The notes beneath the pieces are model-generated. The model was not told the DNA's origin. It was given only the letters and a program-made list of their open reading frames with translations, and searched no databases. This document shows, piece after piece, positions 1 to 59,026 of a stretch of 59,026 bases of DNA. This stretch comes from a virus. The DNA is taken from the IMG/VR virus record IMGVR_UViG_3300031027_000002; one strand, given 5' to 3'. The first letter of the stretch is position 1; every line of letters starts with the position of its first letter. The position numbers were made by a program, and so were the translations under genes.

Positions 1-127
1 AGTCGATAGCGACGAGCCGAAGTTAGCCCCGAACACGTCCACATAGATTCCGCCGCCGCCCTCGCCGCCTGTTGCAGGCCCTGAGAGGTTGTCCTGGTAC
101 ATGCAGACAGGGGCTTGCGCGAACGCC
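1..127. repeat. Terminal direct repeat identical to 58900..59026 (assembly overlap; circular or circularly permuted molecule)
   Basis: Read base by base: agtcgatagcgacgagccg...gcttgcgcgaacgcc occurs at both window ends; unique length about 58,899 bp. Confidence 0.95.
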
Positions 128-167
128 AGAGGCGAACAGAGCAATGCGAAAAGGAATGCAACTACCT

Positions 168-2597
168 TCACGGCTTCACCGCAATCACAATGGCTGCGTA
201 CGGGTCGGTACTTGTTGAATCGGAGGCAGTAGCGATGATTGCAGCCGCAGTGCCCTGGTTGAAGTATTCAGAAACTTTACTAAAGGTCCCGTTTACCAAG
301 GTGAAGGCATTGGGTGCGGTTCCGGCTGTATTGCCGTTCGACCCAGTGGCAAAGAAGGCAACGATCAAATCTCCGTTGGTAACGGGCGTTAGGGACGTGG
401 CGGTTAGGTTGTTCGCTCCTGCTGCCCCGCCAAACGCACTGGCCTTGATCGAATATCCAACTCCAGAACCGCCATCAATGGGGCTCGAAGATGCTGCGCC
501 AACAACCTCAAAGGCAAGTCCGCTAAGAAAGGTTGCCCCCGTTGAACTATGGACTGTTACGACATTAGAGGCCGTTGTGTGAGTGTTTAGTGCATAGAAG
601 CACTCCGATTGGTCGTTGGCCACGGTGAATGCAGCCTGTCCGGGGCCGCAATCAACATAAGTATTTCCTGCCGTATCCGTGGGCACTGTATAAGTCACAT
701 TTGAGCCAGAAAATTCGTGGACGATGATAAGACTGCCAGAGGTTAGCGCTGCGCTAAACGCCGTGAGTGCTGCACTTGTGACCGATGTCGCACCGCCATT
801 CAAAAGCCCAGTGTTAGGAATGGTGAATGAATTAGTGAGGTAATTCTGTGGGGTGCTTTGGACGAAGTACCCGCTGCCTTGGCACGATCCGTACAGCGTC
901 TCTGTAGAACTCACCACGATTCCAGTTCCACCAGCAACCGCCGTGGTCCCCGTTGAAATAAATGGAGAGCCGGTGCTGCAACTCGTCGTTACAGTGGTGC
1001 CGGGGCTGACGACTCCCGCGACAGGAGAGAATACCGGGGTAGCTGCGGACGGAGGCCATGTTAGCCCACCTGCCGAACCGAGAACAGTAAATCCGGTGTA
1101 GGCAACGCCGCCCGAACCTGTAGTGGGGTAGCCGGGGTTAGCACCTATATAGCAGGGGATGCCATTGAAGGACAAACATCCAGTGCTGGACCCACCGATC
1201 AAGAATGAACTGCCTTGCGTCGTATTGTTACCAGTGGCTGACCAGCCCTGCATGGCGGCTGAGGAGCCAGGATATTCGGCAATTAGAGGACTTGTGTATC
1301 CGTTGTTATTCGAAAGGGTGACCGGACCGACTGCTCCATTGTTCGACGGTAAGCCGAATTGCACAGAGGCCGAAACTCCCCCCGACACCGTACATCCGCC
1401 AGTGTCAAGACTGTTTCCCGTGGCGATCCATCCACCCTCCGCACCAGCAGCCGCCGCCTTATAAAAATCCAACACAACCGCGAAACCATAGAGAGTGTTG
1501 TTGCCTATCGAGGTGTGCATACTTGAATCAGAGTGCAGGATTCCACCACAGGGACCAAAGCTCAAGGCTGGAGTCGTGTGCTCAATCGTATTGCTTGTAA
1601 AAACTAAGGTATTGGCCCCTCCGTTCTGATCCACATTGCGAGAGAAGCATTGACCACTTACATTGCCCTGAAACTTATTTCTGGAAAACTCACTGGTCCC
1701 GATCCACGTATCCCATTGAACGGAGTAGTTCGTACAAGTCCCCAACGTGGCGTTCCCAGCGCCTGTATTGTTGAAATTCACATCGTCGATGACATCGATG
1801 TACAACCCCGGCTCAATCTCAAAAATGGCAGTGCCTAGACCAGCACCATTCGTAAACGTACCGCCGCGCCAAGTGAAATCGTGGCAGCCGGTTGAGTAGA
1901 AAGAGCCGCCAGTCGGACAGCCCGTATTTCCACCTTGGATGCAGTTGCCTCCCGTCTGAGCGCAATCAATTGTCGCGAAGGATTGGATGCTAGCGCTTCC
2001 TGCTGTACCGCCTGTTCCCGCTGGGCCAGTGAAGGCCAAGTTGCAACTCGCCAGCTTGTAAGCCTTACCTGAGCCGGAGCCTTCGATATATACGTGCGCT
2101 TCTCCGGGGCCTGCATAGGAATTGATCGCGGTCATGAAGGCCGTGGTAGCCGATCCGCAGTTATCCGTTGAATCGTCGTCTACCCATTGGAGGCAATTGC
2201 TTAGGCCATTGCAAGCTGAGGCGATGTAGAAGATGGAGCTTGTCGGCGTCGGTGTTCCAATGAAAGGAGCGCCCGTCGTGGTCGTATTATAGAGCGGTCC
2301 CGTAGCCAACCCAGACAGCAGCGTGCCGTTGAGTCCCTTCACTGTCGTCGCCCCGCCAGTCGATGTGCTTGTTGCGTCGCCGGTAAGGGCGTTGAAACTT
2401 CCACCGCCACCAGAACCAATTAGCGTCCAAGTTCCACTTTGGCAGGTGTAGAGCGTTCCGAGGGTTACGACCTGTTCATCCGGCAGGTTCTGAGTACAGG
2501 CACCCGATGGGGCCGAGGCGACATTGATGATGCTCGGGTTGCTCACCTGTGCGGCGGCCGGCAGTGCAAACAGAAACGCCAGTAGAACTTTCTTCAT
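168..2597 (-). CDS. Gly/Thr/Ser-rich fibre- or adhesin-like protein (809 aa) with N-terminal Sec-type signal peptide
   Basis: ORF track 168..2606; start moved to ATG 2597 behind AGAGGTGA RBS; N-terminus MKKVLLAFLFALPAAAQ; shares motif GDAxSTSTGGATTVxGL with the 1657-aa protein. Confidence 0.75.
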   Translation of the reverse strand: MKKVLLAFLFALPAAAQVSNPSIINVASAPSGACTQNLPDEQVVTLGTLYTCQSGTWTLIGSGGGGSFNALTGDATSTSTGGATTVKGLNGTLLSGLATGPLYNTTTTGAPFIGTPTPTSSIFYIASACNGLSNCLQWVDDDSTDNCGSATTAFMTAINSYAGPGEAHVYIEGSGSGKAYKLASCNLAFTGPAGTGGTAGSASIQSFATIDCAQTGGNCIQGGNTGCPTGGSFYSTGCHDFTWRGGTFTNGAGLGTAIFEIEPGLYIDVIDDVNFNNTGAGNATLGTCTNYSVQWDTWIGTSEFSRNKFQGNVSGQCFSRNVDQNGGANTLVFTSNTIEHTTPALSFGPCGGILHSDSSMHTSIGNNTLYGFAVVLDFYKAAAAGAEGGWIATGNSLDTGGCTVSGGVSASVQFGLPSNNGAVGPVTLSNNNGYTSPLIAEYPGSSAAMQGWSATGNNTTQGSSFLIGGSSTGCLSFNGIPCYIGANPGYPTTGSGGVAYTGFTVLGSAGGLTWPPSAATPVFSPVAGVVSPGTTVTTSCSTGSPFISTGTTAVAGGTGIVVSSTETLYGSCQGSGYFVQSTPQNYLTNSFTIPNTGLLNGGATSVTSAALTAFSAALTSGSLIIVHEFSGSNVTYTVPTDTAGNTYVDCGPGQAAFTVANDQSECFYALNTHTTASNVVTVHSSTGATFLSGLAFEVVGAASSSPIDGGSGVGYSIKASAFGGAAGANNLTATSLTPVTNGDLIVAFFATGSNGNTAGTAPNAFTLVNGTFSKVSEYFNQGTAAAIIATASDSTSTDPYAAIVIAVKP

Positions 2598-2610
2598 CTC
2601 TCTCACCTCT

Positions 2611-5600
2611 TTAGAAGACAGCCACAGAATAATTTTTGGCGGCGGGAGTCACTGCTGCTATTGCGCAAATGCTCACGGTCACCGTGTTAGCCCCGGTAGC
2701 GGCGGCCGATAGCGTAACGAGCCCATTCGGTAGTGACCCATCTGAAGCGGCAACGGCAACGGGAGATCCAATCGGGAAGTTGCCAGCGCCTACGCCTGTA
2801 ACCGTCGCCGTTCCTGTAACACAGCTTCCGGCCCCCGCTAACAAGCTTCCTCCGATGGACCCCGTGGTGCCGCTTAGGTAAGTGCTAGCAGCAACGAAAG
2901 CCGTCGTGGCAATCTGGTTGTTGTTCGTGCCCAAAGTCGCCGTCGGTGCCGTTGGGGTTCCTGTGAACGTAGGGCTGGAAAGAGGCGCGGCTCCCGGAAC
3001 TTGTGCCAGAGGCAGGTTCCCCGTAACGCCGCCCGGCGCGCTGCTGGCAAGATTCACCACAGAGAAGTTCATTAGCGACGTGAATTCTGATCCCCCGTTG
3101 AGATCTACCTTGAAGAGATGGGATGAGTCTGCGCGAATGGTGTCTACTCCAGCCGCAGCCGTAACCGCAGTTCCCGCTTCCGCGAAGGCTCCGCAGCCTG
3201 ACACTCCAGCGCCGCAGGTCGGAGGAGACGATCCGAGTGCAAGACTCGTCGCCGTCAGCGTTGTGAATGCGCCAGAGTTTGGGGTGGTGCTGCCGATTGT
3301 ACCCGGCGTAGCCCACGGGATGCCGGTGATGCAGTTGGACCATCCTGCTGCCGTTGAAGTTCCGCCGCTAGTGAGACATTGACCTGAAGTTCCGAGGCTT
3401 CCATTGGCCTCATACGCGAAGGCATTGAACGTTTCTGTCCAATTCAGAACCTCTTGACTGAAGAGACTTCCAGTATCAATGAAGCTTAGCGCACCAAAGC
3501 TATCGTCATACTTCACAATGCCGTTGTTCGTTTGACTGTGGTTCTGCATTTCGATCAGGTAGCTTGTGGGAGCGTTTGCCAACTTTAGGGCGTCAAACCA
3601 GAAGCCTGTATCGGCGTCGATCATTGAGAACCCTGGTGCGCCAGAGCTCCCGCTATTTCCAAGTCGGATCATTGCCAACATACGAGAACCACCCGAATCA
3701 GATAACTGCAAGCAGCTACTTGGATTACTACCATCTATCGGCGTCCACTGGCCGCACACCATACGGATGCCTTCGCCTGAGAATTCCGATGTTGGAGCGC
3801 CGACAATATTATCCGCCACAGTGAGGAGCATGTCGTTTGTTCCAAGCGTGGACGTATCCGTTGCGCCATTGCCGGTTCCAGTGGTGATCGCTGCGGAGTA
3901 AATCGTGACTGCCGTTCCCGAGGGGAGAATATTTCCTGTGCTTCCAACGCCGTTGCATGCTCCTGTGCCGCCGCCAACGCAATTTGAGAAAGCTAACTGT
4001 GTGGAGGTAAACGCTCCGTCGATCTTGTAAGCCACCGGCCACCCAGCGGAGACGGCGGCATTGGATACGAACGCCTCGCTGGCGGGTCCGCCCTGCATGA
4101 TACGCGTTGAGTTTCCGTTATTCCACGCGTTGCGCGTGCAGAAGGTAACACTGTCCGTGGTCGACCCCGTAGTAACGGCGGTGATATAGACCTCTTCCTT
4201 GAATGGTCCGGAAAGATTGGCGTCTAGCGATGTTCCTGGTGAAGCGGCAACCACTGGGCAGGAAGTAATACCACCAGAGACCACAAAGTGGTTAGGCGAG
4301 GCCGGAGATACCCCGAGCGTTACTGTGCAGGTAGTAGCAACGTACGCTTGGAAGTGGCCGCTCCCGTTGCCAGTGCAGGAGCTGCCGATGATGTTGCCCC
4401 ACGCGACCGACACGGGAACTGTACCCGCCGTAAGCGCGTAGGACATGCCATTCATCACGCTGCTCTCTGCGCCAAGCGTCACAGAAGAAGTCGCCGCGGT
4501 CGTGTTGATGACGATGTCATCATCTGGGATATTGCTAGCGAGGCGGGGGTTAGTGCAGTTGACGTTGCAATTCAGCGAACCCAACGTGATCGAGTTTGCT
4601 CCGTTCGTCGGCGCAGCGAGAGTAGCTGTCATCAGTAGGCCGCTTGCCGTCGAAGTTGAGAAGGTTCCGGCGCTCGGTACGCCAGAGAAGGCAGCTCCAG
4701 CAAATGAGCCATTGGCGGGGGCGTTCCCTGTCGCCTGATAGTAGTAAATTGTTTGCCCTGCCGCAGCAGTTAGAGATGGAGTCCATGTCTCGACGCAGGG
4801 TGAGCCGCTGGAGCAGGTTAGCGACGGTAAGGATTCAGTCACTGGAGCACCAAGCGTAAACGATCCTAAACCGTTCGGTGTAGCCAGCCCGATATCGATG
4901 GTTTGCGCCGTGGTGTTTGCCGTATAGGTCACAGAGAACGACTGAACCGCTCCCGCTGCTGGGAAGATTACTGGAGCGCCGTTACCCCCTACCCAGATGT
5001 AAGTTAGGCCTGAAGTTGAAGGGCCATGCGCGCCGCTAAGCGTTCCGACCGAAGGCGTTACGAGCGCTCCATTGAACCATGGGCCTTGCAGAAATTGAAA
5101 GGTAGCGCACTGACTTCCTTCGCCAGATGCATCCACAAACCCACCGCTAGCTTCGCAATACATGTAAAGTCCTGCGAAATCTCCGCCAGCGTTTTTCCCG
5201 GCATTGATTAGGAGGCCCTGCATGATGCCGCGAGTCGCTGAATAGGCGTCAATGGTTAGTGCATTTTGTGTAGACCACGCCGGGGGAGTACCACAGGATG
5301 TGCTGTTGTTTCCGCAATTCCAGCCTTGGCCGTAAGAGAACATCGAAATTACATTAGGCTGGACGACACCAATGTTTCCTACTGAGGTCTGCTCGAAGGT
5401 AGTCGTGTCTCCCGGTTGCGTCGTGATGAACTGACTGTCTCCGAGGGGAGGATTATTCTGGACGCACACTCCGAGCGCACAGCCGCCGCCACCACCCGCA
5501 GAGAACACCCAAGCCGTCCCCGTCCAATTCAGGAAACCGGCAGATAGGCTCGGCAACGCATTATTTAGGAGTCCCGTGACTGTGGTAGCTCCGCCTGTCG

Positions 5601-7584
5601 AAGTGCTGATCGCATCGCCTGACAGGGTTACGAAGGTTCCGCTTCCGCAAGATCCCGCCGTCCATGCGCCTGCAGATCCAAATACACAGTCTCCGTTTAC
5701 CGGAGCAAGTCCTGCTGGTGAGCTCGTGGAGTTGGAAATTACCAAGTCACCCGTTGCGGGCCACGTAATCGAACCACCACCACCCGTGCAGCCTACATTC
5801 GTCACCACCGCAGGAGAGCCTGTCGGATAGCAGAGTGGGCTGGTGCTGGGAGTTAGGTAGTTGAGTTCTAGGCCCTGAAATGCGACCGTAGAAATTAGCG
5901 CTGTTCCGCCTCCGGCACCATCGTTGATGCTAAAAGTTATGGTCGGATGACCAGTTGATGTCTCGTTGGTTGATAAGTCCATCCCCGAGAGGCTATACGT
6001 TATACAGTTGACGACATCTTGAGTCGGCAATCCATGACTGTCGCCGCAAATGTAAGGAGTTACGGGCGTTACAGCGACCTCGCCTCCGAGAACCATCCCA
6101 TTGAAAACTTGCACCGCGCCGGGGTCAGGACTTCCGTCTCCCGTCACCGCTAATAGCTGGCCACCCGTGAATGAATCTACGTCGAAAATGGATGAGTTCT
6201 GCCCCGTTACCTCTCCGCTCACTACCAGCGTCGTCTGGTCATTTCCGTCTGTGGGATTCACGTACAGCGGCAGGACTGAGGTCAGTACGCCAAAGTTAGT
6301 ATTGCCGTTGTCGATGGGAGAGTCGCCCAGCGTTGAGGATGTTGCAGCGAGCGGCAGAACTCCCGGTGTCAGGCCAGAGATTCCACCACCCCCCGGCGTA
6401 ACCCAGACTCCTAAGTCGTTGCAAACATCTCCTATGCCCGTCCCCGGCGCGCAGGTAACCATTTGCGACGTGGCGCTGGACTTACTGGTAACAAAACCAC
6501 CTCCACCCGAAACAAAGGTGAAGCCGTTGGGCATGTAAACACCGCCCTCAGCCGCCAATAGAAAAGGCATATAGACAGTGCTGCCAAAAGCTGTTCCGAA
6601 GTTGACGCCGGGGTTGATTCCGTTCAGAAGCCCGCCTTGGCCCGCAGAGGATACTTGAAAGTTCTGCGGAGACGCTGGGCCTGCCGCTTGCGTATAAACT
6701 GCTCCCTCAATATTCGTGTTGATCGGATGAGACACAGCCGTGTATGCATTGCCTCCGCGACGAAGGCTTAACTGATTCAATACAAGTGACGTAGGGGTTA
6801 TCGAATCCCAACAGATAAACTCCACCGCTCCATTCGTCCATCCGCATCCAGTAGAAGGCCAGCCCGTCGTAGAGGCCACAGGAATCGTTAGAGATGTTGG
6901 GGTAATCGCTGCCGTAGTGGTAACCAACACGGTTGCGAAGGTTGGGTTGTTCTGGTCTAGGTTGGCGCACGTAGGCCCGGCACAGAAAGGCGGCAGGGCG
7001 CACCCGGTGCTGCCTAATGGGCAATTTACCCCATTGATGACAGAGAATGGAGTAGCCAGCGTAGCCAGCACATTACTTCCTGAGGGGTTCGCGAAGTTGA
7101 TTTGCCCATTGCCGGTCGAATTGGCGAAGTTCACGGGAGAGGACAACGCAGAGCCACCGTTGACTGTTATTGATGCCCCGCCACCGCCAGAGCCGCCAGC
7201 GCCCGCCAGAAGCCCGGTCAGCGTCACCGGAGAGGTGTAGGTGTTTGGAGTGATGCCGCCGCTCAGCACTACGTCGTAAGCCCCAGATTGCATCGCGTAG
7301 AACAGCCATTGGCCTGTCGTTGGACTTGCCGTAAAGGGGTTGGAGAGTGCTCCACTTGATGGGTTGGCGTAGATCGTCGCAAGCGTGGTGGTTCCCGAAA
7401 GATAAACGGTCACAGTGCACGATCTAACCACCCCTTGCTGGTAGTTGGTGCTTTTTAGACCTGATACGGATGCCTGTTGTGCGCCCTGCTCGCAAAAGCC
7501 GTTGATGGCTCCAGTCTGAGCCGAGGCCACCCCTGTTGCCAAGCCCATCGCCAACGCCGCCAGCAGCCAGAGTAGTTTCCGCAT
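2611..7584 (-). CDS. Very large tail-fibre-like protein (1657 aa) with N-terminal Sec-type signal peptide
   Basis: Uninterrupted 1657-codon ORF; N-terminus MRKLLWLLAALAMGLATGVASA-QTG; C-terminal SSPTFTGTPTAPTATLGTNNNQIATTAFV (2881..2985) is the motif I recognise from many phage tail fibres. Confidence 0.8.
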   Translation of the reverse strand: MRKLLWLLAALAMGLATGVASAQTGAINGFCEQGAQQASVSGLKSTNYQQGVVRSCTVTVYLSGTTTLATIYANPSSGALSNPFTASPTTGQWLFYAMQSGAYDVVLSGGITPNTYTSPVTLTGLLAGAGGSGGGGASITVNGGSALSSPVNFANSTGNGQINFANPSGSNVLATLATPFSVINGVNCPLGSTGCALPPFCAGPTCANLDQNNPTFATVLVTTTAAITPTSLTIPVASTTGWPSTGCGWTNGAVEFICWDSITPTSLVLNQLSLRRGGNAYTAVSHPINTNIEGAVYTQAAGPASPQNFQVSSAGQGGLLNGINPGVNFGTAFGSTVYMPFLLAAEGGVYMPNGFTFVSGGGGFVTSKSSATSQMVTCAPGTGIGDVCNDLGVWVTPGGGGISGLTPGVLPLAATSSTLGDSPIDNGNTNFGVLTSVLPLYVNPTDGNDQTTLVVSGEVTGQNSSIFDVDSFTGGQLLAVTGDGSPDPGAVQVFNGMVLGGEVAVTPVTPYICGDSHGLPTQDVVNCITYSLSGMDLSTNETSTGHPTITFSINDGAGGGTALISTVAFQGLELNYLTPSTSPLCYPTGSPAVVTNVGCTGGGGSITWPATGDLVISNSTSSPAGLAPVNGDCVFGSAGAWTAGSCGSGTFVTLSGDAISTSTGGATTVTGLLNNALPSLSAGFLNWTGTAWVFSAGGGGGCALGVCVQNNPPLGDSQFITTQPGDTTTFEQTSVGNIGVVQPNVISMFSYGQGWNCGNNSTSCGTPPAWSTQNALTIDAYSATRGIMQGLLINAGKNAGGDFAGLYMYCEASGGFVDASGEGSQCATFQFLQGPWFNGALVTPSVGTLSGAHGPSTSGLTYIWVGGNGAPVIFPAAGAVQSFSVTYTANTTAQTIDIGLATPNGLGSFTLGAPVTESLPSLTCSSGSPCVETWTPSLTAAAGQTIYYYQATGNAPANGSFAGAAFSGVPSAGTFSTSTASGLLMTATLAAPTNGANSITLGSLNCNVNCTNPRLASNIPDDDIVINTTAATSSVTLGAESSVMNGMSYALTAGTVPVSVAWGNIIGSSCTGNGSGHFQAYVATTCTVTLGVSPASPNHFVVSGGITSCPVVAASPGTSLDANLSGPFKEEVYITAVTTGSTTDSVTFCTRNAWNNGNSTRIMQGGPASEAFVSNAAVSAGWPVAYKIDGAFTSTQLAFSNCVGGGTGACNGVGSTGNILPSGTAVTIYSAAITTGTGNGATDTSTLGTNDMLLTVADNIVGAPTSEFSGEGIRMVCGQWTPIDGSNPSSCLQLSDSGGSRMLAMIRLGNSGSSGAPGFSMIDADTGFWFDALKLANAPTSYLIEMQNHSQTNNGIVKYDDSFGALSFIDTGSLFSQEVLNWTETFNAFAYEANGSLGTSGQCLTSGGTSTAAGWSNCITGIPWATPGTIGSTTPNSGAFTTLTATSLALGSSPPTCGAGVSGCGAFAEAGTAVTAAAGVDTIRADSSHLFKVDLNGGSEFTSLMNFSVVNLASSAPGGVTGNLPLAQVPGAAPLSSPTFTGTPTAPTATLGTNNNQIATTAFVAASTYLSGTTGSIGGSLLAGAGSCVTGTATVTGVGAGNFPIGSPVAVAASDGSLPNGLVTLSAAATGANTVTVSICAIAAVTPAAKNYSVAVF

Positions 7585-7602
7585 GTTTCCCTCGACGATG
7601 CC

Positions 7603-7649
7603 AAGGCGCTATCGGGACTCGAACGAGGCGATTGCGGGACTCTCTGGGG
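7603..7649. promoter_or_regulatory. Conserved 46-nt element, copy A (partner at 26654..26699)
   Basis: aggcgctatcgg + ~11 variable nt + ggcgaWtgcgggactctMtggg shared with copy B; lies 19-65 nt upstream of the 1657-aa gene start on the minus strand. Confidence 0.5.
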
Positions 7650-7661
7650 AGAGTATACAAT
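7632..7661 (+). promoter_or_regulatory. Candidate sigma70-type promoter TTGCGG-18-TACAAT, 5 nt before ATG 7667 (leaderless geometry)
   Basis: Hexamers read directly; no RBS between -10 and ATG. Confidence 0.35.
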
Positions 7662-7666
7662 GGGCC

Positions 7667-8158
7667 ATGCCCAACGCGAAGAAAAACCCCGACCCCAAGG
7701 TTCCCACCGTCAACGGCGTTCCAATCAACGATCCCCCGGCTCCTACGCCAGCACCCACCCCACCCGAGACTCCCCCATCGCGTCAGCCTTCCGGCGCCGT
7801 AATTGCCCTGCAAGAGCAGATTGTCGGACTCATCACCGCCCGCGACAGGGAAATGGCGAAGGTAGCGCTCTCGCAGGCGAAGGTTAGCCTCTGGCAGGGA
7901 CGACTGCACGCTGCGCAGGCTGCGCTGCAAGGTGATATCACGAATCTCACGCGGCTGGATCAGGAAGTGCAATACCGCATGGGCGTGATTGACCAGCTCG
8001 AGGGCCGCGCTCCATCCGCTCCGCAGTACCCGCAACAGGCGTATCCGATGGCTCCAACAAGCGGTCCCAACCTCGTCACTACCTCCCAGCCGTATCAGGG
8101 CGACGACAGCGACCTCGTGAACCGCGCACACGCAACTAGGGCCTTGGCGGTAATCTAG
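7667..8158 (+). CDS. Pro-rich / coiled-coil hypothetical protein (163 aa), lone plus-strand gene inside the minus-strand block
   Basis: ORF track 7583..8158; internal ATG 7667 chosen; heptad-like ALQEQIVGLITARDREMAKVALSQAKVSLWQGRLHAAQAALQ; the antisense 260-aa ORF looks like junk. Confidence 0.5.
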   Translation: MPNAKKNPDPKVPTVNGVPINDPPAPTPAPTPPETPPSRQPSGAVIALQEQIVGLITARDREMAKVALSQAKVSLWQGRLHAAQAALQGDITNLTRLDQEVQYRMGVIDQLEGRAPSAPQYPQQAYPMAPTSGPNLVTTSQPYQGDDSDLVNRAHATRALAVI

Positions 8159-13959: not shown

Positions 13960-13976
13960 TCAGCACCTCTTTCGTC

Positions 13977-20913: not shown

Positions 20914-21198
20914 CTACTTGACTACGAACGTGAGGAGGGTTTGGCCGGCGGTTCCGGTCACGTACCAGTCGCCCAGCGTCTCGGTATACCCGACGGGCGT
21001 CTGCACGGTGAACGATCCGGAAGGCTGAAGCGGGATGCCCAGCGACGCCGAAACACGGCTGTCACCGATGTACATCACGGCGGCAGAGTTGTTGTAGAAC
21101 GTCACCCACTGGAACGAGCTTTCATGCTGCACGATCGGGTCGCGCGGAACGATGGACGTCGGAGAAGTCGCTGCGATGGTCGTCGAGATTACATACAT
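20914..21198 (-). CDS. Hypothetical virion protein (94 aa)
   Basis: Start set at the TAATG overlap (MYVISTT); ORF track 20914..21276. Confidence 0.55.
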   Translation of the reverse strand: MYVISTTIAATSPTSIVPRDPIVQHESSFQWVTFYNNSAAVMYIGDSRVSASLGIPLQPSGSFTVQTPVGYTETLGDWYVTGTAGQTLLTFVVK

Positions 21199-22241
21199 TA
21201 GTTGCTCCTGTTCCCGGAATACCCGCCGAGATTGATCCCTGCGTTCATTGTGGCATAAGGCGAACCTTGGCCCCACGGACCACGGAGGCGAACGTTGTTC
21301 TGCTGCTGCCCGTCGAGATTGAGGTCGATCGCAAGAACCTGCCCGAAGATGAACATGAACTTCTTTTCCGCCATCTGCGACAGGAGCATCATGCCCTTGC
21401 CGGAGCCGGGGGTCTTCGCTTCCATCTTTGCGGCCGCATCCTCCAGAAGCATCTGGCGAGCCTTCTGCTCGAGCATGTCCTCGGTGATCGGGTACGGCGT
21501 CGTCATAGACATCCAGTCCGCAGGAACCTGCGGGAGCGGTCCGCGGCGGCGGTACGAGTAGCTGTACGGCACGTAGTTAGTCTGGTGCGGCCATAGTTCG
21601 AACATCTGGTATCCGAGCGTGGCGCTGCCGGGGCGTTGGTCCGTGCCCGCCGGAACCGCGTACCGTGGGTTCGAGAAGTCGAGGCGCTGAGGGTCTTTGA
21701 CTGACAGGGTGGCCTGCGTGACGCTCCAGAAGTCGATGTAGCCATCGTTGGTTGTGTCGCGGATTTCGATGAACTTCCGGAAGTCGGCAACTGGCGCCGG
21801 GTAGTAGACCTGATAGATCATGTACGGCTGGCCGGGACCACTGGTCGGCTCCATCCAAGGGCGGTCAAGGGTCAACGTCGCAAACGGGTAGTTCGGCGAG
21901 TTCGCCGGGTCTTGCCCATTGTCGTACGCGATGATGTTGTAGACCGAGAAGCTCGGGTTACGGTACTGAAGCTGCGTGATGAACGGCTGGCCGGTGTAGC
22001 CCAGCAGGAGATTCGTGAGGTACGAGTTGCATACGATGCTGGGGGAGTACGGCGTCGTGGTCGTGCTGCCGGTGTTGAAGATGATGCCAGGGGTGAGCCA
22101 TCCAGAGAAGCCCTTTTGAAACGACCAATCGCAGTTATCGTAGATCGCCCCCAGCGCGCGCTGCGTCTCCGTCTGCGAGCGAGACAGTGGCGTATCGGGT
22201 ACCAATCCAGTCAAGGCCTTCGCAACGTTAAACAGGCTCAT
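21198..22241 (-). CDS. Hypothetical virion protein (347 aa)
   Basis: Start at ATG 22241 behind TAGGAGAA RBS, directly after terminator 22251..22288. Confidence 0.7.
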   Translation of the reverse strand: MSLFNVAKALTGLVPDTPLSRSQTETQRALGAIYDNCDWSFQKGFSGWLTPGIIFNTGSTTTTPYSPSIVCNSYLTNLLLGYTGQPFITQLQYRNPSFSVYNIIAYDNGQDPANSPNYPFATLTLDRPWMEPTSGPGQPYMIYQVYYPAPVADFRKFIEIRDTTNDGYIDFWSVTQATLSVKDPQRLDFSNPRYAVPAGTDQRPGSATLGYQMFELWPHQTNYVPYSYSYRRRGPLPQVPADWMSMTTPYPITEDMLEQKARQMLLEDAAAKMEAKTPGSGKGMMLLSQMAEKKFMFIFGQVLAIDLNLDGQQQNNVRLRGPWGQGSPYATMNAGINLGGYSGNRSN

Positions 22242-22250
22242 CGTTCTCCT

Positions 22251-22288
22251 AAAAGTAAAGGGCCGCGCCGAGAACGGCAACGGCCCCC
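22251..22288 (-). terminator. Candidate intrinsic terminator
   Basis: Minus strand GGGCCG...CGGCCC stem followed by TTTACTTTT. Confidence 0.45.
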
Positions 22289-39835: not shown

Positions 39836-39864
39836 GTAGGGGAGTCACTCAGGAGGTGGCGAAC

Positions 39865-53133: not shown

Positions 53134-53890
53134 GCCCTCTCAGTTGGAAATGGGAGAAGCGATCCGCAAGGTCTACCCCTACTTCAATCTTCGCGGTCTT
53201 GAAGGCGACGGACCAAAGGTATGGGGGGCATTCTTTACTCTCGGCCAAACCTATGAACAGACGAAGTGGTATCCGACACAAAAACTGGCCGTCGAGGAAG
53301 TCTTCTACGCGCTCCCGAAGAAGCTGGAGAGCGCACTGGCAGTAGTAGGGGACGAGGAGCCGGATCAGTTACTCTGCGTCCACGGCATATTCGGGCGCGA
53401 TGGATTGGGTTGCGAAATCTGCAACTCCCTAGACACACAAGAACTGCCGTCGCTGGACGTAAAAAATATGGCTCTTGAAATGTTCATCGAGGAGCGAATG
53501 ACCGTCGCTAAAGATTGGGGAGTACCCACTAAGGGCTTTGTTTCAAAGCAAACGCTCGATGGTATCGATGCGGAAGTAAACGATCGCCTGCGCATACGCC
53601 TAATCGAAGCCTTGTCTCGACTCTCCGCAATGGAGAAAGAGAACCATTGGATCAGCGTGGAGCACGAGCTGCCACCAATGGGCAGACTTGTCATCGTATC
53701 CGCAGGTAAAGTAGTGCAGATGTGCCTCTACAGTTGGAATGGAGAAGACAATGCTTGGAGTCCATTCGATGAAGATTTCGATTGCGCTCCTGCGGATACC
53801 TTCACTCACTGGCGTCCTCTTCCATCCCCTCCCAAGGAGGCACTAGACGTTAGAAGGGACAAGAATGGGTGGCCAGACAAGCCACATTGA
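53126..53890 (+). CDS. DUF551-domain protein
   Basis: C-terminal WISVEHELPPMGRLVIVS...FTHWRPLPSPP. Confidence 0.65.
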   Translation: MNKPSQLEMGEAIRKVYPYFNLRGLEGDGPKVWGAFFTLGQTYEQTKWYPTQKLAVEEVFYALPKKLESALAVVGDEEPDQLLCVHGIFGRDGLGCEICNSLDTQELPSLDVKNMALEMFIEERMTVAKDWGVPTKGFVSKQTLDGIDAEVNDRLRIRLIEALSRLSAMEKENHWISVEHELPPMGRLVIVSAGKVVQMCLYSWNGEDNAWSPFDEDFDCAPADTFTHWRPLPSPPKEALDVRRDKNGWPDKPH

Positions 53891-54605
53891 CCCCTAGAGT
53901 CCCGTAGTTGAGTATCTTCTTCCACCATGGCTGCGGCGCCGTTGCTTGGTCTGCGGCCTTTCTTATGTCCGTCGCGATCGCTGTTATCTGGACTGTCGTG
54001 AGCGCTGCCTGCTCTGAGGTGTCCGCTACGCCCTTCAGAGCCCGGTCTACGTCTGGGGAGGTTACGCGCGCATCGAAGTCTTTCACCATTCTGTCGGCGT
54101 CGTCCTCGACGGGTTGTAGCTTCCTGATTGCGGCCCCAGCGTCGCCTATGGTCGCGTTGGCGGTGTCGATGGCAGGGTTTATATGCGTCGAGAGCGTGGT
54201 GAGGCTCTTAGACGCAGCGTCGGCCGTTCCTGTGAGGGCGTCTGTAGCCGTGTTGACGTGGGTTAGCGTCCCCGTCACTGCTCCGCCGACATTCTGGATC
54301 GTGCCGGCGGCCGACGTAAGCACTGCTCCAGTTTGCTTTACCTGTTCAGCCCCCTGTGCTGCGAGGATGCCGATGTTCTTGGTGGTCTGGCTCATCTGGG
54401 CAATTGGGCCACAGGTTACGCTGCCATGGAAGCCTGTGCAGGGCGCGTTGACTGTTGCGAGGGTCTTATTGACCCCATCGATCGTGCTGCTTGCTTTCCA
54501 CAGCACTAGACACAAGAAAACCCCCGCCACGGCATACGTAACGAGGGTTATATCTCGGAGGATGGAGCGAAGGTTGTCCATAGGGTTATGGATGGGCGGC
54601 CCCAA
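53850..54605 (-). CDS. N-terminally membrane-anchored protein (251 aa), last gene of the lysis-side block
   Basis: TTG start behind GGAAGGGG; TM ITLVTYAVAGVFLCLVLW; Ala/Thr-rich helical remainder. Confidence 0.5.
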   Translation of the reverse strand: MGPPIHNPMDNLRSILRDITLVTYAVAGVFLCLVLWKASSTIDGVNKTLATVNAPCTGFHGSVTCGPIAQMSQTTKNIGILAAQGAEQVKQTGAVLTSAAGTIQNVGGAVTGTLTHVNTATDALTGTADAASKSLTTLSTHINPAIDTANATIGDAGAAIRKLQPVEDDADRMVKDFDARVTSPDVDRALKGVADTSEQAALTTVQITAIATDIRKAADQATAPQPWWKKILNYGTLGVNVACLATHSCPF

Positions 54606-54635
54606 GGAACCCCTTCCGAAAGACCGCCCAACTGT

Positions 54636-55076
54636 TTAGGCCGCTGGGGTTGCCGCTGGCGCGGGTGACGCCGTGGTGAGTGCGGTAGCCAAAGTGGTGA
54701 GGTTGGTCACGATAGCCGTAGCCGCCGCAACGCTCTTCGGGTTCTTGATCTGGGCTGCCGAGATGAGGGAACTTGCATTGGTCGCGAGCGAAGATGCGAG
54801 GCTGGCCGCCGTGGGTGTGGCGCCGTAGTCTGCAATCAGGCCGCTGAGGGCCGTGACACCGGTCGTGATGGCTGAGGTGGCCGCCGTGACTGCTGCTGAT
54901 GCAGCTGGGCCTCCCTCGAGGCCTGCGATGACCGAAGCCGCCCCGCCAACGTACTGGAGAGTCGTGTCGGCGATCTTCTCGATCGCGGGCTGTTCGGCGT
55001 GAAGTTTGGTCAGTTCCTTCTCTGCCCAGTTAATAAATGTGTGTTCTGCGCCTTCAATGTCAGAAATAAAGCTCAT
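54636..55076 (-). CDS. Ala/Thr/Ser-rich hypothetical protein (146 aa)
   Basis: ORF downstream of the holin-like gene. Confidence 0.5.
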   Translation of the reverse strand: MSFISDIEGAEHTFINWAEKELTKLHAEQPAIEKIADTTLQYVGGAASVIAGLEGGPAASAAVTAATSAITTGVTALSGLIADYGATPTAASLASSLATNASSLISAAQIKNPKSVAAATAIVTNLTTLATALTTASPAPAATPAA

Positions 55077-55130
55077 GTGGGGCTCCTTTGGTGGTGCGGT
55101 TGATGTTTCTGCTGGGATTATAGTCCTCAG

Positions 55131-55424
55131 TCATGCGGCTGGGGGATTGATCGGGGGAACTTTCAACGTGCTGGAGCTCATGTCCGTAACCACGGAGCCT
55201 CCCGGTAGATCGCTGGGATCACGATGGGTAAGGTCTTTGCCGGTTAGGAGGGTCGAAGCGATGGCAATTTCAGCCACGGCTATGCCACTCGTTCCGACCA
55301 GGGCCGCTACCCTCAGATTTGGGTCGCCGCGGGAGAACAGGAACACCATGATGCTGATGGCGTCGGCGCTGATAATGGCCAGCACAATGATGGTGAACAA
55401 CTGCCTCGCGTTGAGTCCGCCCAC
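55131..55424 (-). CDS. Holin-like membrane protein (97 aa)
   Basis: Two hydrophobic helices; GTG overlaps the lysozyme stop (TAGTG). Confidence 0.55.
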   Translation of the reverse strand: MGGLNARQLFTIIVLAIISADAISIMVFLFSRGDPNLRVAALVGTSGIAVAEIAIASTLLTGKDLTHRDPSDLPGGSVVTDMSSSTLKVPPINPPAA

Positions 55425-55852
55425 TAGACCGCCTCCAGAAAGAGATTCGCCTCAGCTTGACGTCGGCGTACAAGGCCCGGAATTACTTGTCCTCCAGCAT
55501 GTACCCATTCCCCGAACTGCTCGGAGGCTAGCTGGAAATTGCCTTGATTCACCAACCGTAACAGGGTGGAACCAGTAAAGTTACCTGAGCCTACGTTGTA
55601 CGTGAAGTCTACCATCGCATCATGCTGATTCTGGTTGATTTCGGACGTAACGTTCTTGTTCACCACGGAATTAGCCCACTGGGTATCAATGACGAGTTGA
55701 GCATCCGCCTGCTCTTGCGTCCAGACCGTCCCCAGTGTAGTCGGAGTATGACCCCAACCGATTGTAGGGACGCCTGCGGAGTCTAGGTAAGCCTCCAGCC
55801 GGCATCCTTCAAACGACTTCGTTAGCGCGAGTCCTGCGGGTCCGTAGTTCAC
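55424..55852 (-). CDS. GH24 (T4/lambda-type) lysozyme endolysin
   Basis: LTKSFEGCRLEAYLDSAGVPTIGWGHT and the following lysozyme pattern. Confidence 0.85.
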   Translation of the reverse strand: MNYGPAGLALTKSFEGCRLEAYLDSAGVPTIGWGHTPTTLGTVWTQEQADAQLVIDTQWANSVVNKNVTSEINQNQHDAMVDFTYNVGSGNFTGSTLLRLVNQGNFQLASEQFGEWVHAGGQVIPGLVRRRQAEANLFLEAV

Positions 55853-55968
55853 GACGGCAATACCGGATTGTTCGGCGAAGGAAGCGGACCACCCTTGCGC
55901 ACTGGAGGGTTGGTAGGGTCAACTGGCTGCGGGGGGGTGTATGGCGGGTTTACTGGATTAGATCCCAT
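55849..55968 (-). CDS. Small Pro-rich ORF (39 aa)
   Basis: Not in track; MGSNPVNPPYTPPQPVDPTNPPVRKGGPLPSPNNPVLPS; GTGA coupling to the lysozyme gene. Confidence 0.3.
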   Translation of the reverse strand: MGSNPVNPPYTPPQPVDPTNPPVRKGGPLPSPNNPVLPS

Positions 55969-55977
55969 GTGAGTCTC

Positions 55978-56232
55978 CTAGAATGAAGTGGAAATCTGGT
56001 GCGCTTCGTGTTGGCCCCTAGCTAAGTCAGCAACAGTTCCCCCCAGGATCGTGAGCAGAAGGAGAATGATGCCCCAGAACATTTTCTTTATATCAGAAAT
56101 CGATTTTGTATGAGTTTCCAACGCGTCCTCCGCTTGCTGCATCCTCGTAGTGATCCCCGGTTTTCCGTTACCGTGGAACATATTCTTCTCGAGTCGTTCG
56201 ATCCTACTTTCGTGTTCGTATCCGTTCGGCAC
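55978..56232 (-). CDS. C-terminally TM-anchored protein (84 aa)
   Basis: MFWGIILLLLTILGGTV helix. Confidence 0.5.
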   Translation of the reverse strand: MPNGYEHESRIERLEKNMFHGNGKPGITTRMQQAEDALETHTKSISDIKKMFWGIILLLLTILGGTVADLARGQHEAHQISTSF

Positions 56233-56301
56233 TGGCCCTACCTCTAAGTTAGATTCTCGACGGCACCCTTGGGAGGCTTGGCCATTACTGCCATAGGCCG
56301 C

Positions 56302-56517
56302 TTACTCAACGAACTTATCTCTATCCAACTCTTGCTTGACGCCTTCAGCTTTGCTCGATTTTCTCGTAAGTTCAAGCAATTCAGTCAGACGTCCGTCTAC
56401 CCTCTCGCCCACATCCGTCAACTTAGTACGGTTCAGCCACCCAAGGACCGCGGCAGAGAGTGCAACGATCGTCGGCGGAGTGGTGGCAATCAGTGCGATC
56501 TTTACGGCGTCCGTCAT
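56302..56517 (-). CDS. N-terminal TM protein (71 aa)
   Basis: ATGA coupling; MTDAVKIALIATTPPTIVALSAAVLGW. Confidence 0.5.
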   Translation of the reverse strand: MTDAVKIALIATTPPTIVALSAAVLGWLNRTKLTDVGERVDGRLTELLELTRKSSKAEGVKQELDRDKFVE

Positions 56518-56726
56518 CCTCCCTCCTTGCCCTGCAACTGGCCCAGCACATCTTTGAACATCTTCGCGGCCTCGGGACACTTCCGAGACTCGCAGAGATA
56601 GATTGCTCGATTGAGGCATTGAACCATGATATCTACCTTTTCCTCCGCAATATAAATATCCATCTCCGCCGCATCGTAATAAGCTCTGGTGCCGAGGAGA
56701 ATCCGCTTTGGGTGGTTCAACGGCAT
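56514..56726 (-). CDS. Hypothetical protein (70 aa)
   Basis: Start moved to ATG 56726, 6 nt after AGAGGT. Confidence 0.5.
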   Translation of the reverse strand: MPLNHPKRILLGTRAYYDAAEMDIYIAEEKVDIMVQCLNRAIYLCESRKCPEAAKMFKDVLGQLQGKEGG

Positions 56727-56791: not shown

Positions 56792-57187
56792 CTAGTTGGC
56801 GGTAACGGTGAGGCCGGTGGGGGCGGGAAGAGGGAGCGTGCCGCTCGCGATGTTCGATGCGGGAGAAGTTTGGGTCCCGTTGACGTTCACCGCGTAGTAG
56901 GAATACGTCCCAGCCGTCACCGTGGAGTCCGTGTAAGGGCCGCTAGCCGTGACACCAGTAACCAACTGCGTGAAGGATGTCGGAGCCGTGCAGGGCGTGC
57001 CAGCGCACCGGAAGAGGGTAACCGTGGTGCCAGCAGGAACTCCGGTGGGCTGAGTCCACGAGACGGTAGCGGTTGGACCGGTGGCTGTCTGAGCGAACGA
57101 GACCGCCAGCATTGAGTGCTTGGTCTGGGCCGAGACTGGCAGGCAGAGGACAAGTAAAGCGGCGAGGAGCGATAACTTCGTTTTCAT
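56792..57187 (-). CDS. Secreted single-FN3-like-domain protein (131 aa) with signal peptide
   Basis: MKTKLSLLAALLVLCLPVSA-QTK; FN3-like TVSWTQP...YSYYAVNV; ends PAPTGLTVTAN, which looks like the first strand of a second FN3 unit. Confidence 0.7.
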   Translation of the reverse strand: MKTKLSLLAALLVLCLPVSAQTKHSMLAVSFAQTATGPTATVSWTQPTGVPAGTTVTLFRCAGTPCTAPTSFTQLVTGVTASGPYTDSTVTAGTYSYYAVNVNGTQTSPASNIASGTLPLPAPTGLTVTAN

Positions 57188-57195
57188 GGTTCTCC

Positions 57196-59001
57196 TTAGT
57201 GTACGGACGTGCCTGATGACAAGGCTACTCCAGATGAAAATTGAACTCCGAGAAAAGTTGGCGGCGCTATCCCCGGCTCTACAAATCCGATCGCCGGTGG
57301 GTTAGGACGTGTGACACCTACAAAGTCCAGCGTGGAGGCTTGAGACGCTGTACCAGCACCAATTGCAGGTGATCCACTCTGAAGTTTGTAATTCGTCCAC
57401 GGGCCGTTGGTTGCGCTTACGAATAGCGGATTGGTTGGCAGACTCAGCGACGTGAGGCTGGAGGCTGGTGTCGTCCCGCTGGGCGTCCCGCCGTAGAACA
57501 AAAGGTTGTTCGACCCTGTAAGGATCGCCTGCGGGGAGCCGCCGCCGAAAAGGATGTTGAAGGACGACGTGTTGGCGTACGCAGGCTGGTAGATGATGTT
57601 GTTCGTTAAGTGAACAGTGAACGGGGTCTGCGCTGTCTCGAAACCGTATGCGATCGCCGCAGCAAACGTGCTGCTGGATGAGTTTACGTAGACACTGCAA
57701 TCATAGAAAGTGTTGTTATAGACCTGTGCCGTTCCCGAGCCTACCGCGCTAGTTGCCTCGCCGGGGAATGAAAGGCAGGTGTGAACGCCGTCTGAGTCGC
57801 TGGCGGGTTGAATCCCGACGTGGTGGATGATGTTGCCGAAAATGTTTAGTGGTCCCTGCGCGCTATCCCACGTAGCGATGTTGATGCCCGCACCGTTCAC
57901 GTCGGTGATGTCGTTATAGGCGAACTCACCATTGCCAAAGCCGAGGGACGTATCTGTGAAGTAGTTCCACTGAATGCCGTTCCATGTGCAGTCGTCGATC
58001 TTGTTGTAGTCCGCGACCACCTGATTGCCCGTCAAATAGATCGAGTGGTACTGCTTGTTGGACACGCCCCCCGAATCGGAGCAACTGCTGTTGTGCAGGT
58101 AGTTGCCGAGGACAAATGTGCCGACATTGACTTGAGCTTCTTGACCGCCTGTAAGACAGGCTGAGGAGCCAGAGCCGGTCGGAGCGGTGAGTATATTGTT
58201 AACTGCCCGCATAAACGGCCCAGTGGGCGGCTCGGTGAACGAGAGGCAATTTCCTTGGCCCAATATTGTTAGCCCGGAGATTACCGTGCCCACGTCGCCA
58301 TAGTCGCGGATGCCCGTTGAGGCATTGACACCGTTGCCGATTGTTGCTGTAGCTCCGGGGCGCGCCATAAGGACGGTAGGAGTTGCTGAGGTCTGCGTAA
58401 ACCCCATATCCAATTGGAAGGCGGTGTAGAGGCTTCCCCCATCCGCGTAGGCAAAGTCGAACCCATTCAAGAACACAATAGTGTCCCCACCGTTGATGCA
58501 CTGGTAAAACTGAATCGGGATCAGACTATTGGCTGGCGGCGAAACATTGCTGCCTCCGCCGTTGATTTGCGTGCTGGGCGTGTTATTCGTCTTCCACGGA
58601 TTGCCGAACGATCCGTTACCGGCGTTGCCGTCCAGAGCGGTGCCGTTCTTTAGATTCGTGCAGTTCAGCGTAGTTCCGGTTGTGGCATTGTCGATGCCGG
58701 AGCCAATGTAGTAGATCGCACCCGAGCGCACAGTGAAGGTGAGGTTTGAGCACGAACCTCCCGGCGTGGTGATGACGATGTTACCGCTTCCCGTCGTGGC
58801 TGACGGAACCTGAAAGCCCAACTGTTGACGGTCTCCCGTCTTGTCCGCGCCGAGGTAAATCTTATTCGTAACTGCCGTGCCGTTCACCGTGATCGAGATA
58901 GTCGATAGCGACGAGCCGAAGTTAGCCCCGAACACGTCCACATAGATTCCGCCGCCGCCCTCGCCGCCTGTTGCAGGCCCTGAGAGGTTGTCCTGGTACA
59001 T
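57196..59001 (-). CDS. Tailspike/depolymerase-like protein: IPT/TIG-like N-domain + right-handed parallel beta-helix
   Basis: IYVDVFGANFGS...ITVNGTAV...IVITTPGGSCSNLTFTV, then repeated NxxxxN/G beta-helix rungs (NNILTAP, GNYLHNS, YNDITDVNGAGINI, GNIIHHVG); its first 34 codons lie in the terminal repeat. Confidence 0.8.
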   Translation of the reverse strand: MYQDNLSGPATGGEGGGGIYVDVFGANFGSSLSTISITVNGTAVTNKIYLGADKTGDRQQLGFQVPSATTGSGNIVITTPGGSCSNLTFTVRSGAIYYIGSGIDNATTGTTLNCTNLKNGTALDGNAGNGSFGNPWKTNNTPSTQINGGGSNVSPPANSLIPIQFYQCINGGDTIVFLNGFDFAYADGGSLYTAFQLDMGFTQTSATPTVLMARPGATATIGNGVNASTGIRDYGDVGTVISGLTILGQGNCLSFTEPPTGPFMRAVNNILTAPTGSGSSACLTGGQEAQVNVGTFVLGNYLHNSSCSDSGGVSNKQYHSIYLTGNQVVADYNKIDDCTWNGIQWNYFTDTSLGFGNGEFAYNDITDVNGAGINIATWDSAQGPLNIFGNIIHHVGIQPASDSDGVHTCLSFPGEATSAVGSGTAQVYNNTFYDCSVYVNSSSSTFAAAIAYGFETAQTPFTVHLTNNIIYQPAYANTSSFNILFGGGSPQAILTGSNNLLFYGGTPSGTTPASSLTSLSLPTNPLFVSATNGPWTNYKLQSGSPAIGAGTASQASTLDFVGVTRPNPPAIGFVEPGIAPPTFLGVQFSSGVALSSGTSVH

Positions 59002-59026
59002 GCAGACAGGGGCTTGCGCGAACGCC
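58900..59026. repeat. Terminal direct repeat identical to 1..127
   Basis: See the first feature. Confidence 0.95.

Follow-up and report, generated by a model that had tools for sequence, protein, structure and literature searches.

In the 59,026-bp DNA of the IMG/VR virus record IMGVR_UViG_3300031027_000002 (the window, by which we mean the whole stretch that was analyzed; 57.6% GC), four consecutive late genes upstream of the lysis cassette encode proteins of 1657, 809, 624, and 131 amino acids (aa), each beginning with a predicted canonical Sec signal of the type cleaved by signal peptidase I (SPase I). Bases 1 to 127 of the window were identical to bases 58900 to 59026, and this exact 127-bp direct repeat at both ends marks the window as a complete genome of 58,899 bp, either circular or terminally redundant. 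Among its products are a large terminase (TerL, recognized by PHROG), a helicase, the recombination proteins ERF and YqaJ, and a phage lysozyme. In tblastn synteny comparisons, its terminase, portal, capsid, and "tail protein" were homologous to those of the Tunturiibacter phage Tunturi_1, a podovirus of Acidobacteriota that is in culture and has a 23-nm tail (PMC11924767), and relatives of the window were also found in metagenome-assembled genomes (MAGs) labeled Acidobacteriota and Terracidiphilus. From this homology and these relatives, the element is thus a podophage of Acidobacteriota. The genes and their signal peptides are located as follows (a slash marks the predicted cleavage site; mature cysteine [Cys] counts are given where relevant).

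2611..7584, minus strand: open reading frame of the 1657-aa candidate tail spike or fiber protein (signal peptide, anchor domain, poly-Gly linker, long body with paired Cys, C-terminal tail-fiber module)
7519..7584, minus strand: signal peptide of the 1657-aa protein, aa 1 to 22, MRKLLWLLAALAMGLATGVASA/QTG, with predicted cleavage before Gln23
168..2597, minus strand: 809-aa gene, candidate second receptor-binding protein, ATG at 2597, 20 mature Cys
2550..2597, minus strand: signal peptide of the 809-aa protein, aa 1 to 16, MKKVLLAFLFALPAAA/QVS
1..171, minus strand: 5' end of the 624-aa gene, with a GTG start at 171..169 overlapping the TGA stop of the 809-aa gene (GTGA)
118..171, minus strand: signal peptide of the 624-aa protein, aa 1 to 18, MKVVAFLFALLCSPLAFA/QAP
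57196..59026, minus strand: remainder of the 624-aa gene (58900 to 59026 duplicates 1 to 127), TIG/IPT domain and predicted right-handed beta-helix glycanase, 10 mature Cys
58900..59026, no strand: terminal repeat, 127 bp, exact duplicate of 1..127
56792..57187, minus strand: 131-aa Ig/FN3-like gene, 2 mature Cys, 5 residues apart
57128..57187, minus strand: signal peptide of the 131-aa protein, aa 1 to 20, MKTKLSLLAALLVLCLPVSA/QTK

The first-pass annotation had recognized Sec-type N termini on the 1657-, 809-, and 131-aa proteins, and this was correct. The n-regions of the four proteins (MRK, MKK, MK, and MKTK) are basic, the hydrophobic cores comprise 9 to 13 residues, and small residues occupy positions -3 and -1 in all four (ASA, AAA, AFA, or VSA), followed by Gln. 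The same annotation had described the neighboring protein as a 601-aa product without a signal peptide, which proved to be an artifact of the point at which the window is cut: the circularized gene encodes 624 aa, and an entry in a public protein collection (P0039) is exactly the 624-aa product read across the genome junction. Because the 601-aa call was such an artifact, the finding is strengthened to four consecutive signal-peptide genes. Shine-Dalgarno-like sequences preceded the starts of the 1657-, 809-, and 131-aa genes (GAGG, GAGGTGA, and AAGGAG, respectively). Among ~82 crude gene calls in the window, a strong h-region combined with a positive n-region and an AxA/Q site was found in these four proteins only (heuristic scan with an h-region Kyte-Doolittle score of >2.6, not a trained predictor).

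The four window signal peptides contained no twin-arginine motif and no canonical lipobox. Lipoprotein signals of the signal peptidase II type were rejected, since a canonical lipobox is lacking in the window proteins and the LLGC-like motifs of homologues precede the AxA/Q site. Such lipobox-like sequences (LLGC or LFGC) were seen inside the signal peptide, before the usual YA/Q site, in homologues P0002, P0009, and P0036, and some members of the 1657-aa family might be lipoproteins. No C-terminal sorting signal (PEP-CTERM or the C-terminal domain of the type IX secretion system [T9SS]) was present in the C-terminal sequences of the window proteins; one distant homologue of the 624-aa protein has a T9SS tail.

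Conservation of the signal peptides and the paired cysteines

Most of the 38 homologues of the 1657-aa protein that were compared (P0001 to P0038) share only its first ~125 residues. A signal peptide was found in 36 of them, and the other 2 were N-terminally truncated. The sequences of these signals were very different from one another, while charge, hydrophobic core, and small-x-small site were kept, usually with Gln as the next residue. An exhaustive profile search for the family returned 3877 clusters (at 50% identity) at an E value of ≤1e-3 and 552 at ≤1e-30. Among 128 top-scoring new representatives that contain the domain motif (beyond the 38 homologues and pairwise <50% identical), 125 were signal bearing, and the remaining 3 were truncated. 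Gln was found at position +1 in 110 of the 125 signal-bearing representatives and in 4 of 4 window proteins. Close relatives in IMG/VR were signal bearing in 30 of 31 cases, and the signal peptides of the 624- and 809-aa families were likewise retained, with nearly all homologues of the 809-aa protein (P0098 to P0131) having both a signal peptide and Gln at +1.

The Gln at +1 resembles the Q-rule for SPase I substrates, which has been described as Bacteroidetes specific (PMC5837995), whereas the hosts tied to the lineage of the window are Acidobacteriota (Tunturiibacter, a Terracidiphilus MAG, and an Acidobacteriota MAG) and not Bacteroidota. Because of that described specificity, the strong Gln+1 preference in an Acidobacteriota-tied lineage is a second oddity. 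In phages of Porphyromonas gingivalis, Q-rule signal peptides have been noted on the products of genes without an assigned function, which were not identified as tail spikes (PMC10367356). In our literature searches for signal peptides on tail fibers, tailspikes, and receptor-binding proteins of tailed phages, no such description was found.

In Tunturi_1, gp12, gp13, and gp14 all begin with signal peptides, and gp14 is annotated as "tail spike." That the host imposes the trait was considered and rejected. The podovirus Tunturi_3 grows on the same host strain and the siphovirus Tunturi_4 on a related host, yet signal peptides are absent from the annotated tail fibers and tail proteins of both phages, and Cys are few in these proteins, often in odd numbers. 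As the fibers of Tunturi_3 lack the trait on the same host strain, it belongs to the phage lineage.

If the true start codons lay downstream, the signal peptides would be an artifact of annotation, an objection that the first-pass annotation had itself raised. An occasional Met near the cleavage site in a few homologues was all that we found in favor of this explanation. The conserved domain of the 1657-aa family starts right at the cleavage site, so that there is no room for a downstream start that would drop the hydrophobic segment; moreover, the chosen starts are preceded by Shine-Dalgarno-like sequences, and the frame is open through the hydrophobic segment, which is conserved family-wide. 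We consider a start artifact barely conceivable.

Dutton et al. in 2008 are said to have reported that exported, disulfide-forming bacterial proteins tend to have even numbers of cysteines. Mature Cys counts of the window proteins were 40 (1657 aa), 20 (809 aa), 10 (624 aa), and 2 (131 aa), and those of Tunturi_1 gp12, gp13, and gp14 were 20, 10, and 20. Even mature counts were found in 37 of 38 homologues of the 1657-aa protein (36 by script, P of about 3e-9, and P0025 by eye), in 118 of the 125 further representatives, and in 27 of 31 homologues of the 809-aa protein. As a control, the other window proteins of ≥150 aa without a signal peptide had 12 even versus 17 odd counts. Cys content was 0.9% in the virion block versus 2.3% in the four signal-bearing proteins. 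A run of virion-module proteins (9034 to 14906, minus strand; 252, 710, 497, 187, and 309 aa) contained no cysteine at all, and they may be ejection proteins or internal proteins, which have to traverse the tail in an unfolded state.

The cysteines were also paired by position. The 40 Cys of the 1657-aa protein fall into 20 sequential pairs of closely spaced residues, with a summed within-pair distance of 289 compared to 797 ± 126 for random positions (P < 2e-4). In a 37-member alignment of the 624-aa family, Cys columns were gained and lost as reciprocal-best pairs (r = 0.67 to 1.0), namely 226/259, 343/362, and 395/418 (r = 1.0) and 330/361 (r = 0.95), and the N-domain pair of the 1657-aa family (C31/C56) was lost jointly in L004 and P0261. 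Paired, even cysteines are, as far as can be read from sequence, a signature of disulfide-bonded exported proteins, and together with the conserved signal features they strongly support the predicted export of these proteins. No phage-encoded thiol oxidase or Dsb-like protein was found among ten early or Cys-rich proteins of the window (amidoligase, ERF, YqaJ, HNH, and DUF551 proteins included).

In L021 (IMGVR_UViG_3300048503_000007, 9992 to 11053), a naturally occurring variant from the same phage lineage, the start codon coincides exactly with the predicted mature N terminus (MSIGAITNYS...). Its anchor protein has no signal peptide and no hydrophobic segment, both N-domain Cys are replaced, and there is zero Cys in 353 aa. 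Since L021 lacks both, signal peptide and cysteines travel together. Fiber genes downstream in the same contig looked repetitive or possibly frameshifted.

The variant bears in two directions on the proposal that the signal-like N termini are not used for export and that the spikes fold and attach in the cytoplasm, with their cysteines oxidizing after release. L021 shows that no signal peptide is needed for the anchor domain to work, and cytoplasmic assembly is, to our knowledge, the rule for every tailed phage that has been studied. On the other hand, the one signal-less variant is also Cys free, which links the two traits, and hundreds of divergent sequences keep the n-h-c plan and the AxA/Q site, a pattern that is difficult to account for unless Sec and SPase I exert selection. 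A cytoplasmic protein with an uncleaved hydrophobic helix would in any case be directed to the membrane, and host homologues of the 624-aa protein have the same kind of signal. We regard cytoplasmic folding with unused signals as distinctly unlikely.

The 1657-aa protein as a candidate tail spike

Two parts of the 1657-aa protein, in addition to its signal peptide, could be assigned.

7210..7518, minus strand: N-terminal beta-sandwich anchor domain, aa 23 to 125, with the conserved pair C31/C56, followed by the poly-Gly linker
2887..2994, minus strand: tail-fiber motif SPTFTGTPTAPTATLGTNNNQIATTAFV, aa 1531 to 1566, PHROG tail-fiber families

The tail-fiber hallmark that the first-pass annotation had placed near the C terminus was thus found at aa 1531 to 1566, within a region (aa 1412 to 1638) that matched PHROG tail-fiber families (phrog_2631, E = 2.5e-10; phrog_7032 at aa 1531 to 1566, E = 2.8e-9). 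At the other end, an AlphaFold2 (AF2) model of the N terminus (30-sequence alignment; predicted local distance difference test [pLDDT] score, 78.5) showed a beta-sandwich domain with the signal peptide as a separate helix (aa 2 to 15). The top PDB matches of this domain in Foldseek were the tail complexes of the cyanopodophages Pan3 and Pam1 (E of about 0.02, probability 1.0), and a sequence profile of the domain matched the Pan3 "Tail spike protein" (E = 0.002, Pan3 residues 20 to 60) through the motif V.VY..GTTT.ATIY...NPF.A. In BFVD, which holds predicted viral structures, the domain matched many phage tail spikes, depolymerases, and fibers, with E values down to 2e-5.

In the structures of Pan3 (PDB 9vyg/9vyh) and of the Pam1 tail machine (PDB 7eeq), the same beta-sandwich domain lies at the N terminus of a long spike, and these spikes and the 1657-aa protein are alike in combining a conserved N-terminal part with a variable C-terminal part within a podophage virion module. 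The Pan3 spike differs in having no signal peptide, its domain beginning at about residue 15, and is about 20% identical to the window protein, whereas the latter begins with a 22-aa Sec signal, has an additional Cys-bridged segment at its N terminus, and contains 40 paired cysteines. Without a signal peptide, the anchor domain also forms the extreme N terminus of a tail fiber encoded right after the baseplate genes in a Sediminimonas prophage, and likewise the extreme N terminus in 7 other viral contigs (L043 to L049).

The position of the gene was compared among 31 related IMG/VR loci, all of which represent one phage lineage. In about 20 of the 31 and in Tunturi_1, the spike gene is flanked by a homologue of the 360-aa "tail protein" on one side and by the 491- and 1034-aa tail genes on the other; in the window and about 9 loci, it follows the virion operon and precedes the lysis genes. 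Tunturi_1 and Tunturi_2 (PP887698 and PP885685; PMC11924767) belong to the same phage lineage as the window and are cultured podoviruses whose tails have been imaged; their description mentions neither signal peptides nor virion proteomics (PMC11924767). Tunturi_1 gp12 shares the anchor domain with the 1657-aa protein (51% identity), while the C-terminal parts are unrelated and the Tunturi spike genes lie between the tail protein and other tail genes rather than beside the lysis cassette. With its conserved N-module, variable C terminus, fiber motifs, and module position, the 1657-aa protein has the hallmarks of a virion receptor-binding protein, to the extent that sequence can tell. No other fiber- or spike-like gene was recognized in the window in Pfam and PHROG scans.

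The helix at aa 2 to 15 of the AF2 model could be taken as an uncleaved structural element, i.e., a membrane tether or a trimerization or assembly helix that acts in tail assembly, and an assembly role of the hydrophobic N terminus had indeed been one option of the first-pass annotation. This option did not hold up. What is conserved are the properties of a signal peptide and the cleavage motif, not the sequence of the helix; L021 starts at the predicted mature N terminus and keeps the domain without the segment, and the anchor domains of Pan3 and L043 to L049 have no such helix. A structural helix is, in our judgment, very improbable.

The companion proteins and the case for non-virion export

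The conserved N-module of the 809-aa protein (QVSNPSII.VASAPSGAC) is of a second type and is common to proteins with unrelated C termini. The 624-aa protein gave a Pfam TIG match and a weak DUF5123 match, and its AF2 model (pLDDT, 83; predicted template modeling score, 0.87) was a right-handed parallel beta-helix with Foldseek matches to GH136, GH87, RbmB, chondroitinase B, PL6, K1 lyase, and VexL (E of 9e-8 to 1e-3); on this model it is a predicted beta-helix glycanase. Over 96% of its length it was 40% identical to a Terracidiphilus MAG protein (P0064) that has its own signal peptide. The gene for P0064 lies amid glycosyltransferase, Wzy, and Polysacc_synt genes, i.e., in an exopolysaccharide (EPS) biosynthesis locus, with two more signal-bearing paralogues nearby. 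The first-pass annotation had suggested that the signal-bearing genes were captured from host surface-protein genes, and for the 624-aa gene this idea gained ground: the 40% identity to a secreted Terracidiphilus EPS-locus protein supports capture of a host-secreted EPS enzyme. Three adjacent TIG and beta-helix paralogues of 1527, 991, and 545 aa, with signal peptides, were seen in the EPS locus of a Terracidiphilus MAG (L008, 4267 to 14797). The 624-aa protein has the right-handed beta-helix fold in common with secreted or periplasmic EPS-locus glycanases (Vibrio RbmB, VexL, and P0064) and differs from the host glycanases in that it is phage encoded, is without their Ig-like repeat extensions, and lies inside a cassette of putative receptor-binding proteins. 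Homologues of the 131-aa protein were found at the same position in L009 (126 aa, with a signal peptide) and L004.

Export does not by itself place a protein on the virion, and the first-pass annotation had proposed exported proteins that are not part of the particle. These would be free depolymerases, enzymes that destroy receptors or exclude superinfecting phages, or surface fibers like the mosaic adhesive trimer (MAT) fibers of Bdellovibrio bacteriovorus, and their N-modules would bind the cell envelope and not the tail. MAT fibers follow the same plan, with a signal peptide, a conserved ~130-aa beta-rich N-domain, and a swappable trimeric tip, they sit on the cell surface, and they show that Sec export of phage-type fibers is possible (PMC10769870). 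They are encoded by chromosomal genes of a predatory bacterium for cell-surface display, whereas the window proteins are phage borne, and the likeness is one of architecture. The signal peptides and the disulfide signature fit non-virion export equally well, the 624-aa protein resembles monomeric secreted or periplasmic glycanases (RbmB, VexL, GH136, and PL6) and has host paralogues in an EPS locus, and the cassette of the window is a separate transcription unit beside the lysis genes. For the 1657-aa protein, several observations speak for the virion instead. Its N-domain is the anchor of solved podophage tail complexes and of signal-less fibers encoded after baseplate genes, and the spike gene lies within the virion operon in most relatives. 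L021, which has neither a signal peptide nor Cys, retains this domain at the equivalent position. Furthermore, with no other spike-like gene recognized in the window, the phage would lack a receptor-binding protein. As an account of the cassette, non-virion export is unlikely, yet it has more to be said for it than any other alternative that we weighed; it stays plausible for the 624- and 131-aa proteins and is not favored for the 1657-aa protein, given the tail-anchor domain and the position of the gene in the virion module.

Neighboring genes and the proposed route of assembly

The lysis genes adjoin the four signal-peptide genes on one side, and the virion operon lies on the other.

53850..56619, minus strand: lysis cassette, directly downstream of the spike cassette on the same strand
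56619..56302 and 56232..55978, minus strand: two small proteins with a single transmembrane (TM) segment each, lysis cassette
55852..55424, minus strand: endolysin (Pfam Phage_lysozyme, E = 1e-43), no signal-arrest-release (SAR) or signal sequence
55424..55131, minus strand: 97-aa protein with two TM segments, lysis cassette
within 53850..56619, minus strand: 146-aa protein and 251-aa DUF948 protein with an N-terminal TM segment, lysis cassette
7583..8158, plus strand: 191-aa gene on the opposite strand, between the upstream virion operon and the spike cassette
21198..22280, minus strand: 360-aa "tail protein," homologue of Tunturi_1 gp11, just upstream of the signal-bearing spike gene in most relatives

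The endolysin is predicted to be of the cytoplasmic type and, being without a SAR or signal sequence, would need large holin lesions. The position and orientation of the 191-aa gene, whose product is rich in coiled-coil and proline, were kept in at least nine related contigs (L004, L028, L029, L031 to L034, and L040 among them). Its location on the opposite strand separates the cassette from the virion operon, which implies that the spike cassette would have a promoter of its own; a scan for promoters and terminators around the start of the cassette was uninformative. The 360-aa "tail protein" is a candidate docking partner of the spike. Pfam and PHROG searches with the 1034-, 710-, 497-, 491-, 681-, 425-, 360-, 333-, 309-, and 317-aa proteins recognized TerL only, and PDB sequence searches with the 1034-, 491-, and 360-aa proteins and with a 4-sequence profile of the 360-aa "tail protein" gave no match.

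Some features of the genome lie apart from the cassette. The large terminase (29763 to 32669, minus strand) is unusually long (968 aa), with PHROG terminase matches spanning aa 176 to 930 and the first ~175 residues unmatched. By crude gene call, a 444-aa Amidoligase_2 protein of the early region (39856 to 41190, plus strand) has 35 cysteines and a 246-aa protein (52393 to 53133, plus strand) has 17; these two Cys-rich early proteins may be metal binding. Two contigs of the phage lineage, L004 (CAZNOW010000006.1), which is 55 kb long and syntenic with the window, and P0019, carry the MAG labels "Candidatus Saccharibacteria" and "Patescibacteria group" and are probably phage contigs binned into the wrong MAGs.

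The reading that we favor, in which genuine virion spikes mature periplasmically and are added to the particle at lysis, was not among the three options of the first-pass annotation. We give an even chance to the proposal that these four late genes are a cassette for host-recognition proteins that are Sec exported and disulfide bonded, the spikes among which mature in the periplasm and join the particles at lysis. The preproteins would be translocated by Sec and cleaved by SPase I, mostly leaving an N-terminal Gln, and the mature proteins would fold oxidatively, with the spikes trimerizing in the periplasm. The 1657-aa protein, and probably also the 809-aa protein, would be virion receptor-binding spikes or fibers whose N-modules dock on the tail and whose C-terminal parts are swapped freely. 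Capsids and tails would be built in the cytoplasm and, for that reason, would not encounter the spikes until the inner membrane is opened by the holin, or until later, in the lysate. The 624-aa protein would act as an EPS depolymerase like the host's own, either free or bound to the other spikes, and the 131-aa Ig-like protein may, speculatively, be a periplasmic accessory protein or chaperone. As a possible rationale, an exported spike system would be compatible with disulfide-stabilized, host-derived secreted glycanase modules. Podophage spikes are added last, and the addition is possible in vitro, as for the P22 tailspike. We infer export, cleavage, oxidation, presence in the virion, and the time and place of attachment from sequence features.

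Several points weigh against periplasmic maturation of virion spikes. We know of no precedent among tailed phages for an essential virion part that is assembled across a membrane barrier, and attachment at the time of lysis would expose the spikes to dilution. Oxidation of virion proteins after release is conceivable in principle, and this too would favor even Cys counts. The resemblance to the Pan3 anchor is modest (20% identity, E of about 0.002 to 0.02), and the 624- and 131-aa proteins have no recognizable anchor module. Finally, the adaptor, the nozzle, and the docking partner on the tail were not found by Pfam, PHROG, and PDB sequence searches. With these points in the balance, the broader claim that virion assembly in a whole lineage of tailed phages is split between two compartments, with heads and tails made in the cytoplasm and Sec-exported spikes matured by the host disulfide machinery, both joined at the holin breach or in the lysate, has in our estimate slightly less than an even chance.

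What is new are tail spikes, as we read them, with export signals and obligate disulfides, and, if periplasmic maturation is true, a new assembly route for tailed phages. The question is testable, since Tunturi_1, Tunturi_2, and their host, Tunturiibacter psychrotolerans X5P2, are in culture. If the proposal is true, pipelines that count a signal peptide against virion membership need a warning. Phage assembly would then depend on the Sec, signal peptidase, and disulfide machinery of the host, which would open new routes to resistance and provide inhibitor targets. Attachment of the spikes would be extracytoplasmic and potentially shared, so that phenotypic mixing of spikes in the lysate would be possible. 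Maturation of the spikes in the periplasm would also explain the exchange of modules between phage spikes and host-secreted glycanases, with host glycanase domains recruited directly as receptor-binding modules, and would give a simple basis for spike stability in acidic soils. The conserved export signals and disulfide signature in a large lineage of soil phages challenge the textbook view that tailed phages are assembled entirely in the cytoplasm.

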